A DNA stretch of 64,000 nucleotides from assembly GCA_951406725.2 (NCBI GenBank), contig OX597820.1:106888001-106952000 (forward strand), in the 5' to 3' direction. This DNA is from Octopus vulgaris (Eukaryota). Under the pieces are notes generated by a model. It made no database searches, was not told where the DNA came from, and saw nothing but the letters and a program-made list of their open reading frames with translations. The position numbers and the translations under genes are program-made. Of the stretch, positions 152 through 60,714 are shown piece after piece (within the stretch, counting starts at the first letter, position 1; each line of letters starts with the position of its first letter).

Positions 152-4736
<4,585 letters not shown>

Positions 4737-4770
4737 ATATATATATGTATATATATATATATATGTATAT

Positions 4771-5169
4771 ATCATCATCATCATCATCATTTAGCGTCCG
4801 TTCTCCATGCTAGCATGGGTTGGACGGTTCAACTGGGGTCTGTGAAGCTGGAAGGCTTCATCAGGCCCAGTCCGATCTGGCAGTGTTTCTACGGCTGGAA
4901 GCCCTTCCTAACGCCAACCACTCCGTGAGTGTAGTGGGTGCTTTTTACGTGCCACCTGCACAGGTGCCAGACAGAGCTGGCAAACGGCCACGAACGGATG
5001 GTGCTTTTACGTGTCACTGGCACGGGGGCCAGGCGAGGCTGGCAACGGACACGAACGGATGGTGCTTTTACGTGCCACCAACACGGGAGCCAGACAGATC
5101 TGGGAAACGGCCACGAAACGGATGGTGCTTTTACGTGTCACTGGCACGGGGGCCAGGCGAGGCTGGCAA
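4771..5169 (-). mobile_element. Non-autonomous retroposon (SINE-like) with (GAT)n tail and internal ~60-bp repeat modules
   Basis: (CAT)n at 4771-4790, then the family core ccatgctagcatgggttggacgg...cccttcctaacgccaaccac, which recurs many times in the window; four modules anchored on ggtgcttt(t)acgtg. Confidence 0.85.
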
Positions 5170-5219
5170 TACATTGGTATATTAAGATGGCATTTGGAAG
5201 ATAACAAAAAACAAATATA

Positions 5220-5563
5220 GGATCTTTACCTTTTGATCAACAGATTTTATAAATATTTTTTTGTAACTAAACACCTTCAAACCTCGGACACTGGTAGAAT
5301 GCGCCACACAAAACATCTCCCACCCCCAGCATTCCCGAGAAAAACCTACATTCACGAAGCCATTTCACGCCAAAGTAGTCCCATTTCGGCAACTTCAACC
5401 AATCAATGACGTGCACTCAGCAGAATAAAACCACTGCCGTTGCTTGTCAACAACAAATATCGGCTGCGCACCTTTCACTTGTCACTGTTCTTTATGACAT
5501 CGTTCATGCGTTTGTACTGGTTTTAAGGTTTTAGGGTTAGGGTTAAGGTTTTTAGGCTTAGGG
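5220..5563. mobile_element. One arm plus part of the interior (TTAGGG-like repeats) of a long-TIR non-autonomous DNA element; arm is T>C hypermutated
   Basis: Starts ggatct and aligns with both arms of the element at 59911-60714; ends ttttagggttagggttaaggtttttaggcttaggg. Confidence 0.8.
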
Positions 5564-6293
<730 letters not shown>

Positions 6294-6665
6294 AGCGTGA
6301 TGCCTAAACCAATCAGCTCAACCAACCAATCAGCTTAAGTAATTGAGTGATACTACACACTGATTGGTCAGAATACAGTTTGCAAAACCTAGCACTCTGG
6401 AGCCTACCCAGCTGTATTTATAGCACAGAATCACTCATCTTGCTACAGTCAAAAAATTGTGAAACATGACTGTCAACACTACTACATGAACCCGAAGATT
6501 GCAGAATTCAATGCATGAAAGTACTAGTTCAATCAGAATGAATATTTAACATTCTACTATTTCATTTTATTTTATTCAATTATAATATATTATCTTATAA
6601 TATATCATTATAAGATTGTAAATAAAACGTGAAAATCAGACAAGGTTGGAATTCTTTTTATTAAT

Positions 6666-8905
<2,240 letters not shown>

Positions 8906-8939
8906 ATATATATATGTATATATATATATATATGTATAT

Positions 8940-9732
8940 ATCATCATCATCATCATCATTTAGCGTCCGTTCTCCATGCTAGCATGGGTTGGACGGTTCA
9001 ACTGGGGTCTGTGAAGCTGGAAGGCTTCATCAGGCCCAGTCCGATCTGGCAGTGTTTCTACGGCTGGAAGCCCTTCCTAACGCCAACCACTCCGTGAGTG
9101 TAGTGGGTGCTTTTTACGTGCCACCCGCACAGGTGCCAGACAGAGCTGGCAAACGGCCACGAACGGATGGTGCTTTTACGTGTCACTGGCACGGGGGCCA
9201 GGCGAGGCTGGCAACGGACACGAACGGATGGTGCTTTTACGTGCCACCAACACGGGAGCCAGACAGAGCTGGGAAACGGCCACGAAACGGATGGTGCTTT
9301 TACGTGTCACTGGCACGGGGGCCAGGCGAGGCTGGCAATACATTGGTATATTAAGATGGCATTTGGAAGATAACAAAAAACAAATATAGGATCTTTACCT
9401 TTTGATCAACAGATTTTATAAATATTTTTTTGTAACTAAACACCTTCAAACCTCGGACACTGGTAGAATGCGCCACACAAAACGTCTCCGACCCCCAGCA
9501 TTCCCGAGAAAAACCTACATTCACGAAGCCATTTCACGCCAAAGTAGTCCCATTTCGGCAACTTCAACCAATCAATGACGTGCACTCAGCAGAATAAAAC
9601 CACTGCCGTTGCTTGTCAACAACAAATATCGGCTGCGCACCTTTCACTTGTCACTGTTCTTTATGACATCGTTCATGCGTTTGTACTGGTTTTAAGGTTT
9701 TAGGGTTAGGGTTAAGGTTTTTAGGCTTAGGG
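8940..9732 (-). mobile_element. Duplicate of 4771-5563 (SINE-like retroposon plus hypermutated TIR arm)
   Basis: Near-identical at offset 4169; about 4 substitutions seen (e.g. acctgca/acccgca, cagatctgg/cagagctgg, aacatctccc/aacgtctccg). Confidence 0.92.
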
Positions 9733-11023
<1,291 letters not shown>

Positions 11024-11025
<2 letters not shown>

Positions 11026-11580
11026 CATCATCATCATCATCATCATCATTTAGCGTCCGTTTTCCATGCTAGCATGGGTTGGACGGTTCTGCTGGGGTCT
11101 GTGAAGCCAGAAGGCTTCATCAGGCCCAGTCAAATCTGGCAGTGTTTCTACGGCTGGATGCCCTTCCTAACGCCAACCACTCCGTGAGTGTAGTGGGTGC
11201 TTTTTACGTGCCACCCGCACTGGTGCCAGACAGAGCTGGCAAACGGCCACGAACGGATGGTGCTTTTTATGTGCCACCGGCACGAGGGCCAGGCGAGGCT
11301 GGCAACGGACACGAAACGGGGCGGTGCTGGCAACGGTCGCGAAACGGAAAGTTCTCTTACATGCCACCGGCACTGGTAACACATCTGCAATTTCCATTGA
11401 TCGATTTCCATTGATCGATTTCGATTCTGATCCTCACTTGCCTCAATGGGTCTTCACAAGCAGAGTTTCGACATGCCACCGGCACTGGTAGCACATCCGC
11501 AATTTCCATTGATCGATTTCGATTCTGATCCTCACTTGCCTCAACACGTCTTCACAAGTAGCCACTTGCCTCAACACGTC

Positions 11581-11584
<4 letters not shown>
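11024..11584 (-). mobile_element. (GAT)n-tailed SINE-like retroposon inserted in a (TA)n tract
   Basis: (CAT)n tail, family core, internal direct repeat acatgccaccggcactggta...gatcctcacttgcctcaa (x2); TA tracts on both sides. Confidence 0.88.
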
Positions 11585-11630
<46 letters not shown>

Positions 11631-11632
<2 letters not shown>

Positions 11633-13100
11633 GTAGGATAGGGCCACTCCTTCAAAAAGATGGTACACTCACAGTAAATCCAATGAGGATAAGTGAAATA
11701 CTAAATGAGCAATTCAAAAGTATTTTCACTCCACCCCTAGGGCATTTTCAAGTCAGTAATCCAACTGACTTCTTTACCACTGCAGATATAAAATCAGAGG
11801 CAACGATGATTGATTACATCAATATAAAGGAAGATGATGTAATAAAGGCTATAGATGAAATAAAAACAAACTCAGCTACTGGCCCCGATGGATTCCCACC
11901 AATCCTCCTAAAAGTATGTAAGAGAGTCCTAGCAAGACCATTACAGTTCCTCTTTCAGAGCTTCCTTGCAGCTGGCAAACTTCCAAGAAAACTGAAGGAG
12001 GGTAAAATATGCCCTATTCATAAAAGAGGTAGCAGAGCGGAGACCAAGAACTACAGACCTATCTCTCTGACCTCACACATCAGCAAGGTCATGGAACGAA
12101 TAGTCAGAAGGAAACTAATCACCTTCCTTGAAGAAAATGACTTGCTGCCTGACACCCAACATGGTTTCTGACCAGGAAGAAGCTGCTTAACTCAGCTCCT
12201 ACAACACTATGACTGGGTGCTGAAACGACTGCTCAACCACTCAAATGTGGAAGTGATATATCTCGACTTTGCAAAAGCCTTTGATAAAGTCGATCATGGA
12301 ATGATATGTCACAAACTGCGTGATCTTGGTTTATTTGGAAAACTGGGAGAATGGCTTCAAGACTTTCTGAAGGATAGAAGTCAGGTGGTAGTAGCCAATG
12401 AAATGTAGGTGGCTTACCAGATGGATTCTTAGAGCTTTTAGAACAAGAGACCAGGAAACCATGATGGTCCTCTGGAGGACACTTGTCCTAAGCCACTTTG
12501 ACTATTGCTCTCAGCTATGGTCACCAATCAGTGTCAAGTTGATCACAGAACTTGAGGCAACCACCGAAGCTACACGAAGAAGATAGCCTCTGTGCAGCAT
12601 ATAAGCTATTGGGAAAGACTCAAGAGATTGAGACTCTATTCCTTAGAGTGTAGGCGGGAAAGATATGCCATAATATACATCTGGAAGATCCTGGAAGGAC
12701 TTGTCCCAAACTTTGGCATCGAGAGTTACACAAATACTAGAACTGGGTGCCACTGCATAGTGCCAAGGACTCCAAATTTGCCATCAAGATGTAGGACAAG
12801 ATACTGTGATAGCCTGGGCTTCAGAGGTCCACAGCTCTTCAATATCCTCCCGAAGGACCTGAGAGACCTGCATGGGGTGGATGCAGATGTCTTTAAAATA
12901 AAACTGGATCTCTTCCTGTCAGGTGTCCCAGATGAACCAACTTCACAGCAGGAGGTGCAGATGAGGGCAGCTGCATCGAACTCTCTCATGCACCAAATGT
13001 CAATTGCTAAAAAGCATTCGTGAAGTAAAATCATGTAGCAACACCAAATGGAGGTGCCCCAGCATGGCCACAGCTCGTGAGCTGAATCTAGATAAAAAAA
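11631..13100 (+). mobile_element. LINE copy 3 with the same internal deletion and a short A-rich tail
   Basis: 5' ~1 kb nearly identical to copy 2; 3' part diverged from copies 1 and 2 (YTNTRTGCHCIVPRTPN vs YTNARTGRHCVVPRTSN). Confidence 0.92.
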
Positions 13101-59910: not shown

Positions 59911-60714
59911 GGATCTGTTCTGTTTTGCTCACAGATTTTTTAATTATATTTTTTTAACTAAACAGTTATTTCTCACACTCAACACAGTTTACTTTCAATA
60001 TTTTTGACAAAATTTCAGATTTTAGAAGTTATTTCGTGTTAAAGTTGTATTTGGGTAATTTTAACCAATCAATGATGTGTATTCAGCTGAAGAAAATTAC
60101 TGCTGCTGTTTGAAACAACAACTTCCGGGTCCATTGACAAAACGATGAATCTTTGACAACAAACTGAAAATTTCCCCTAACAAAGCCCCTTTTAACCAGC
60201 TGAATACACGTCATTGATTTGTTAAAATTACCCAAATATTTTTGTTTTGTTTGTTTTGTTTTTCCAGTTTCAGCTCTTGAGCTGTTTAGTTAAAACATGC
60301 TGGGGCACCGCCATTGTGGTGAAAGAGTACAGCAGGGATCACCACCTCTTTTTTGCCGGAGCCTCGTAGGGCTTTTAGGTGTTTTCGCTCAATAAACACA
60401 CACAACGCCCGGTCTGAGAATCGAAACCGCGATCCTGCGACCGCGAGTCCGCTGCCCTAACCATTCTGGGGCCTCTATATGTCAGATTGTATCATGACAA
60501 CTTTAACATGACAACTTTAACATGAAATAACTGTCAAATTTTATGGAAACAACTTTAACATGAAATAACTTCATTCTCTTCTCTTTGTTTTATTGTTATT
60601 TTGTCAAAGCTTATTGTTCTATGTGACACATTCTACCAGTATCCGAAGTTTCAAAGTGTTTAGTTTAAAAAAATTAACTAGTGGCAAAATCTGTGCATGA
60701 AATGGAATAGATCT
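59911..60714. mobile_element. Long-TIR non-autonomous DNA element (ggatct...agatct) with a SINE nested in its right arm
   Basis: 60050-60089 is almost the exact reverse complement of 60198-60237; outer ends are also inverted (aactaaaca/tgtttagtt, cacagattt/aaatctgtg). Confidence 0.8.
60240..60465 (-). mobile_element. tRNA-headed SINE with LINE-derived 3' tail
   Basis: Minus strand tggttagggcagcggac...ggtttcgattctc head; tail ggtgccccagcatg...cagctcaagagctgaaactgg then (AAAAC)n. Confidence 0.78.

Follow-up and report, generated by a model that had tools for sequence, protein, structure and literature searches.

Clustered A>G changes in an octopus LINE-foldback insertion point to an ADAR-edited RNA copied back into the genome

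The genome of Octopus vulgaris contains a composite insertion that appears to preserve the edits of a single RNA molecule as DNA. The insertion lies in a stretch of 64,000 nucleotides (assembly GCA_951406725.2, contig OX597820.1, positions 106,888,001 to 106,952,000; henceforth referred to as the window, whose coordinates are used unless another locus is named), and it joins the 3' end of a long interspersed nuclear element (LINE) to part of a foldback DNA element with long terminal inverted repeats (TIRs) as arms, the donor of which we traced to a locus beside the myosin-XIX gene. One arm of the foldback part carries a dense block of T>C changes, which on the minus strand are A>G. We put at roughly two in three the probability that a hairpin RNA from beside myosin-XIX was edited by ADAR and then copied by a LINE reverse transcriptase (RT) that had jumped to it from its own RNA. 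The ADAR origin of the A>G block is the part of this reading that we hold with high confidence and, given that origin, a joining of the two parts by the LINE, through a template switch or through earlier joining of the RNAs, is likely. The strength of the case comes from the traced donor, from the fit of the changes to the limits of the RNA duplex and to the strand of the gene, and from recurrence in a second repeat family.

Changes were polarised three ways, by comparing the window with the donor and with a consensus built from 27 further members of the foldback family. Relative to both, segment 5275-5478 shows T>C at 35 of 77 sites and A>G at none of 61, and the T>C changes are present in both copies of the unit that the window contains; the cluster is far beyond chance. 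An earlier note, made from the letters of the window alone, had described a T>C excess with no matching excess of A>G, which these counts bear out; the interval it gave, 5275-5443, holds 30 of the 35 sites, but the block continues to 5478. Donor and consensus both have T at 32 of these sites, the other three being T in the consensus and A in the present donor. In an alignment of 28 matches T stands in nearly all copies where the window has C, and the family consensus, which the note had named as a possible source of refutation, has T and not C at the changed positions. Other window-private changes in the element number only seven, plus one site that differs in all three sequences, and the donor has 11 private changes, one of them T>C. 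Across 58 other family arms the same 204-bp segment has a mean of 1.4 T>C changes and a maximum of six, in a comparison set that is biased to the arms most like the window and contains a few overlapping loci.

The changes follow the part of the arm that pairs with the donor's other arm. Inside the donor-paired stretch T>C affects 35/95 sites, versus 1/53 outside it (P = 2e-7), a count that leaves out 5546-5563, where the loop repeats align ambiguously and may contain one more T>C. The sole changed site outside, 5191, is also C in the donor contigs of sequencing runs X11 and X7 (L078:4336) and may be an allele. At one end, the donor's other arm is interrupted by an insertion of ~390 bp opposite 5257, and T>C in 5221-5256 is 0/17; at the other, T>C in the loop (5500-5545) is 0/21. 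The earlier statement that the changes are confined to the TIR arm agrees with this division, except that 5460-5499, which had been read as the interior of the element, belongs to the arm, which reaches ~5499. The minus-strand RNA of the donor is predicted to form a single extended stem (-344 kcal/mol; z = -35 in comparison with 20 shuffled sequences). On that strand the edited fraction differs with the 5' neighbour, being 13/17 after U, 17/33 after A, 3/13 after C and 2/14 after G (G versus the rest, P = 0.016; U or A versus C or G, P = 0.0007), and the 5'-G avoidance proposed from the letters alone is thereby confirmed. The order U>A>C>G is in line with a depletion of G upstream of edited sites described in passages of PMC5625713, which present it as an ADAR mark common across animals and place octopus among the two most highly hyper-edited species.

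A genome search with 5160-5240 returned only one locus, C30:3544314, at which the 51-bp flank is accompanied by the arm; four weaker matches were to the flank only. This donor aligns with window positions 5169-5564, the alignment beginning exactly at the end of the retroposon part, and five changes relative to the consensus are common to donor and window. Both arms are present at this locus (C30:3544314-3545556), 243 bp of them uninterrupted, and the foldback element is complete there and has a target duplication of 8 bp. The earlier note had suggested that an unedited donor might be found: one with the same 50-bp flank and both arms does exist, but it has no retroposon junction. What the window copy holds is a single arm with some of the loop, together with the flank and the left target duplication, and since this is half an element with its flank, it is not the product of cut-and-paste transposition.

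The donor lies 1.3-2.6 kb beyond the stop codon of a minus-strand myosin-XIX gene, on the sense strand of that gene. A tblastn search with three named myosin-XIX proteins found the gene in minus orientation on C30, its last coding exon ending at 3546892, and the gene matches the myosin-XIX of O. sinensis and O. bimaculoides. Because the plus-strand changes are T>C, the source RNA is expected from the minus strand, and the A>G polarity agrees both with the sense of myosin-XIX and with that of the LINE. Contigs of three runs guessed to be RNA (X3, X11 and X7, strand not given) run from the unique donor flank into the element, with a depth similar to that over the last exon; from this coverage and from the distance we infer that the myosin mRNA includes the element. 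Older donor alleles at 5184, 5191 and 5229 are kept in the window and have been lost from the donor of this genome. Several other features were noted around the donor. The insertion in its right arm is itself an element (L033:2330-2717) and coincides with the limit of the duplex; the 51-bp flank is a member of a small tandem-repeat family on C25, C29 and C30 (L034-L037); two contigs of run X3 over L078:6290-6407, past the myosin stop, have 0 and 8 differences in 118 bases, which could be editing or another copy; and exons of an armadillo-repeat gene lie on the plus strand (L076:1158-3540) ~16 kb from the donor, convergent with myosin-XIX.

Many copies in the genome match the other part of the unit, 4771-5169, at 97-98% identity. 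Longer copies (L043, L055) extend into an open reading frame (ORF), which in L043 scores 53.7 bits against Pfam RVT_1, above the cut-off; because they run into an RT ORF, 4771-5169 is the 5'-truncated 3' untranslated region (UTR) of a LINE. It had been taken for a short interspersed nuclear element (SINE), which has to be given up, while its (GAT)n tail and its place between (TA)n tracts had been correctly described. By its C-terminal motif, the carrier LINE probably belongs to the RTE clade; a PDB sequence search gave no match. Active RTE LINEs are reported in octopus in passages of PMC9115989. The L043 ORF (L043:196-1314) also encodes, beyond the RT core, a region rich in cysteine that has a weak PHD score (22.1 bits, below the cut-off of 24). 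Relative to a consensus of 28 copies, the LINE part differs at 7 of 380 sites, none of them T>C, which is what would be expected if it had been a separate, unpaired RNA. Where the LINE and donor parts meet, a single base (5169) is common to both, and they have the same orientation. No LINE was found at the donor junction in this genome or in the contigs of X3, X11 and X7 that span the point; the two joined parts would thus not have been adjacent at the source, unless a LINE-bearing allele has been lost.

We propose that a minus-strand donor RNA folded into the predicted long stem, in which ADAR would have edited ~45% of the adenosines. Target-primed reverse transcription by an RTE-like LINE would have begun within a (TA)n tract; 399 bases of the LINE's own 3' UTR would have been copied, after which its RT would have moved on to the edited RNA at a point 51 bases past the element. 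This could be a template switch; ligation of the two RNAs before copying would look alike and is inseparable from it by sequence alone. Inosine would have been read as G, copying would have halted in the loop, and the insertion would have been inherited and later tandem-duplicated, so that the editing would presumably have taken place in the germline.

The earlier note had proposed 5' transduction through a SINE tail. In the form that survives best, a lost or unassembled donor allele carried a truncated LINE 51 bases past the element, and the edited read-through RNA was copied as one. No template jump is required by such a source, the sense orientation fits, and the three older alleles kept in the window indicate that the source was an older donor allele. 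The LINE is, however, absent at the junction both in the genome and in the X3, X11 and X7 contigs, the flank and arm occur together at no other locus, and an extra insertion and a later loss would be needed. Given a donor that lacks the LINE at the junction, template switching or RNA joining fits better, and we regard 5' transduction as unlikely.

The two parts could also have arrived separately, an edited retrocopy being followed by a LINE that inserted at its 3' end and removed the remainder. The (TA)n tracts here draw many insertions, and change other than editing is slightly higher in the foldback part (13 differences from the consensus in 330 bases, five of them donor-shared) than in the LINE part (7 in 380). 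Two insertions nevertheless seem very improbable, as no donor sequence or tail lies beyond the LINE, the parts abut in the same orientation with one shared base, and both ends of the unit lie in one (TA)n tract. An A>G signature at WA sites is known from Pol eta-like polymerases, which have error rates of a few percent. A polymerase of this kind, acting in DNA copying or in second-strand synthesis, would share the preference for 5' U or A, and second-strand synthesis would yield sense-strand A>G; but 45% of the A were changed, far above such error rates, the changes end at the duplex edges and spare the LINE part, which would be made in the same reaction, and there are few changes of other types, so that mutagenesis at the DNA level has just as small a chance. 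ADAR acting on the complementary DNA (cDNA) strand of an RNA:DNA hybrid would be expected to give the opposite polarity.

The least credible alternatives, already largely refuted, would put the C letters down to a subfamily rich in C, to CpG decay elsewhere in the family, to GC-biased conversion or to an artefact of assembly. The genome search with 5200-5563 drew on a large repeat family, in which older subfamilies do have C sites of their own (five matches); among the best 40 of 2021 candidates, which were scored, the matches other than the two window copies are 81-85% identical, and a pattern of three of the C letters occurs, among 361 arms that match with T or C left free, in the two window copies only. 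The T in donor and consensus, the missing A>G partner class and the C letters in contigs of runs X1 and X2 speak against them as well. APOBEC editing of DNA was rejected, as it requires sense G>A clusters and the sense change here is A>G.

The C letters recur in sequencing runs, a point on which the earlier note had asked for confirmation from reads: among 24 runs, about half or more of the query words were found in two only (X1, 0.69; X2, 0.49), and both have contigs with C. Run X1, guessed to be DNA, has a 172-bp contig identical to 5240-5411; the depth of this run is 88.6 over the copy and 47.6 over the donor. Run X2, which bears another organism label, covers the LINE junction (5145-5269) as well as 5240-5411, with two differences; two is also the number that separates the second copy of the unit from the first there, and the one at 5315 matches the second copy. 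Runs X8 and X9 contain the donor and have no contig reaching 5320-5350, and no RNA run was among the listed holders of the sequence; we counted neither as absence.

Several observations weigh against our reading. The ends of the stem are unedited (0/10 T in the 21 bp next to the loop and 0/8 T in the first 18 bp), seven edited A are unpaired in the predicted fold, though the donor has since changed, and no clear preference is seen for the 3' neighbour (U 7/17, A 12/32, C 10/16, G 6/12). Candidate poly(A) signals are present on either side of the donor element. Editing of donor RNA was not seen, in runs that are only guessed to be RNA and in which contigs of other family copies swamp the signal. 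The overlap at the junction is only one base, and there is no clean target-site duplication around both parts; both ends of the unit lie within (TA)n. As to the presence in DNA, X1 possibly comes from the sample that was assembled, and X2 is shallow, at a depth of 5-7. Finally, no second edited foldback copy was found with three T>C patterns, each of which sees only copies intact over 22-25 bases.

The foldback family itself was compared at 15 distinct two-ended elements; the 8-bp target duplication is exact at the donor, L015, L023 and L027 and near-exact at several others. Other superfamilies too generate 8-bp target duplications; from the TIRs together with the 8-bp duplication, the family is probably a hAT-type non-autonomous DNA element. 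The element at 59911-60714, against which the window copy had first been aligned, is related, with 78-90% identity to the consensus in its four longer pieces, but is an older relative and not the source. Beyond the window copies, the T>C patterns matched five old-subfamily copies and one copy without an excess, all of which were rejected, and an A>G pattern had no match in the foldback family. A scan of all families covered 1.67 Mb in 205 sequences, of which 348 kb could be called, with 14 duplicates of window or donor loci set aside; it recovered both window copies and one new case (L069). Most of the flagged windows (33 of 39) were C>T or G>A; L103 and L109 were set aside by eye as subfamily or mixed changes, sites flagged in an unmasked scan proved to be microsatellite false matches, and no strong case was found within 1.2 Mb of evenly spaced stretches. 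The scan for other clustered cases that had been called for thus yielded nothing more in the foldback family, but did lead to a SINE and from there to 11 SINE loci.

The new case is a tRNA-type SINE (C30:3454926-3455302) with seven T>C in 25 bp. Its motif, with at most one mismatch, was found at seven loci with differing flanks, and outside the selecting motif these have T>C at 39/511 sites and A>G at 6/441, compared with T>C at 32/3896 in 52 background copies. A tree built without T columns rejects a single clade for the seven (p-AU 0.0103; a quick tree with weak support). A three-site pattern extended the set to 11 loci (L219-L225, L227-L230), the four new ones having T>C at 29/272 sites outside the motif. 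All 11 together have T>C at 68/783 versus A>G at 13/674 and, by 5' neighbour, 22/141 for U, 33/263 for A, 10/181 for C and 3/198 for G; three of them (L219, L222 and L229) have zero or one change outside the motif. Motif-bearing SINE copies number ~82,000 (35 in 1.2 Mb, scaled up), and 0.05 three-site matches are expected by chance. Four-site patterns gave one match in sense and none in the antisense control, numbers that are too few alone for a strand bias. We assume that the A>G changes lie on the SINE sense strand, which was assigned from A- and B-box motifs and the tail; the SINE head was not recognised by ARAGORN or Rfam. None of the 11 edited SINEs lies on C1-C5, which make up 34% of the genome (~0.01 by chance), though the motif occurs there at the same density (14 in 460 kb versus 21 in 740 kb elsewhere); this lack may reflect gene density.

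Retroviral proviruses hypermutated by A>G are a known outcome of edited RNA being reverse-transcribed and integrated; they involve viral RNA and viral RT in infected cells, whereas the octopus case concerns a host transcript. For human L1 in cultured cells, portions of a preprint (PMC11702581) give T>C clusters in 3 of 235 insertions, limited to inverted Alus in 3' UTRs. The octopus copy is like those pseudogenes in having clustered T>C in an inverted repeat of what would be the 3' UTR of a LINE-copied mRNA. It differs from what these portions describe, namely induced L1, cultured cells, inverted Alus and whole pseudogenes, in being a natural and apparently inherited invertebrate insertion, with a DNA-transposon hairpin 5' of a non-L1 LINE end and with its donor traced. 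The established genomic analogue, on the evidence of excerpts of PMC4866542 and PMC2873906, is APOBEC editing of vertebrate long terminal repeat (LTR) elements, which likewise leaves strand-biased clusters of a single type fixed in genomic repeats and polarised by consensus; there the change is sense G>A on cDNA, whereas the octopus copy has A>G, probably made on RNA and limited to the duplex. The same excerpts describe a screen that took invertebrates and DNA transposons as negative controls.

Chimeras formed by RTE-clade elements through template switching, and also by the L1 and L2 clades, are described in parts of PMC4476161 and bioRxiv 10.1101/2025.02.02.635956, and the latter also gives RNA ligation before copying as another route. 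A piece of cellular RNA joined in sense to a 5'-truncated LINE is common to these chimeras and to the octopus unit, in which, unlike them, the partner is a hyperedited fragment from past the last coding exon of a gene. The words 'ADAR' and 'editing' are absent from the main text of that 2025 census (bioRxiv 10.1101/2025.02.02.635956). Hyper-edited RNA clusters of animals, as set out in sections of PMC5625713, share the dense A>G in long duplexes and the depleted upstream G, but are seen in RNA reads against an unedited genome, whereas in the octopus copy the pattern is in DNA. Our literature searches, incomplete in coverage, returned no report of inherited ADAR-edited retrocopies, and the partial texts of PMC7186786, PMC5974252, PMC12548423 and PMC9115989 contain none.

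RNA editing in octopus is usually studied as a temporary and mostly neural change. Rewriting of an RNA before it is copied, which we think was probably the work of ADAR, would turn such temporary edits into inherited mutations, and the traced pair of donor and copy would then present ~35 edits of one RNA molecule as DNA, with the unpaired surroundings untouched. If inherited, the insertion implies that ADAR activity coincided with that of a LINE, either in the germline or early in embryonic life. We lean towards the broader view that ADAR acts there on host transcripts and SINE RNAs, and that the LINE machinery has repeatedly fixed edited RNAs as DNA; this would leave a datable fossil record of single molecules, each pairable with an unedited donor, and would make RNA editing a recurring source of heritable mutations that come in clusters, for one SINE in no fewer than 1 in 10,000 copies. 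From such copies the past level, neighbour preference and timing of editing could be read in DNA, and a clustered A>G class would be added to repeat evolution, for which the earlier G>A screens did not look. In RNA-seq they are a pitfall, as reads derived from the copy and mapped to the donor may pass for editing.

The coordinates of the unit are collected in Table 1.

Table 1. Parts of the composite unit in the window and its second copy
Feature	Position	Strand	Remarks
(TA)n/(TG) microsatellite	4737..4770	.	Left of the insertion
5'-truncated 3' UTR of an RT-coding LINE (presumed RTE-like)	4771..5169	-	(GAT)n tail 4771-4790; ~62-bp internal repeats; unedited
Donor-derived flank	5169..5219	-	Matches C30:3544314 onward; 5212-5219 is the donor's 8-bp target duplication
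Arm of the foldback (long-TIR) non-autonomous DNA element	5220..5499	-	Copied from the donor
Part of the arm pairing with the donor's other arm	5257-5499	-	From the alignment to the donor
Hyperedited block (probable)	5275..5478	-	Minus-strand A>G 35/77, reverse direction 0/61
Start of the hairpin loop, TTAGGG-like repeats	5500..5563	-	Copy terminates here
Second copy of the whole unit	8940..9733	-	Edited block 9444-9647; 4 substitutions and 1 indel versus the first copy

The run pattern of the left tract (4737-4770) resembles the start of the right (TA)n tract, which is compatible with, though not proof of, a target-site duplication blurred by slippage. The two copies of the unit belong to a tandem repeat of 4.2 kb, and the point at which its repeats meet falls within a LINE. 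The tandem units carry different other inserts (6293-6667 and 11025-11583), so that a real duplication and two assembled haplotypes are both possible. The tandem units span window positions 4016-12400, where 8186-8882 matches the first LINE and 7374-8190 the third; the pattern of the join looks as if it came from unequal crossover or from two haplotypes in series. Elsewhere in the window, a tRNA-like short element lies between the arms of the older foldback copy (60330-60460), and the loop of the foldback family is built of telomere-like TTAGGG repeats (window 5500-5563; L033:1860-2090).
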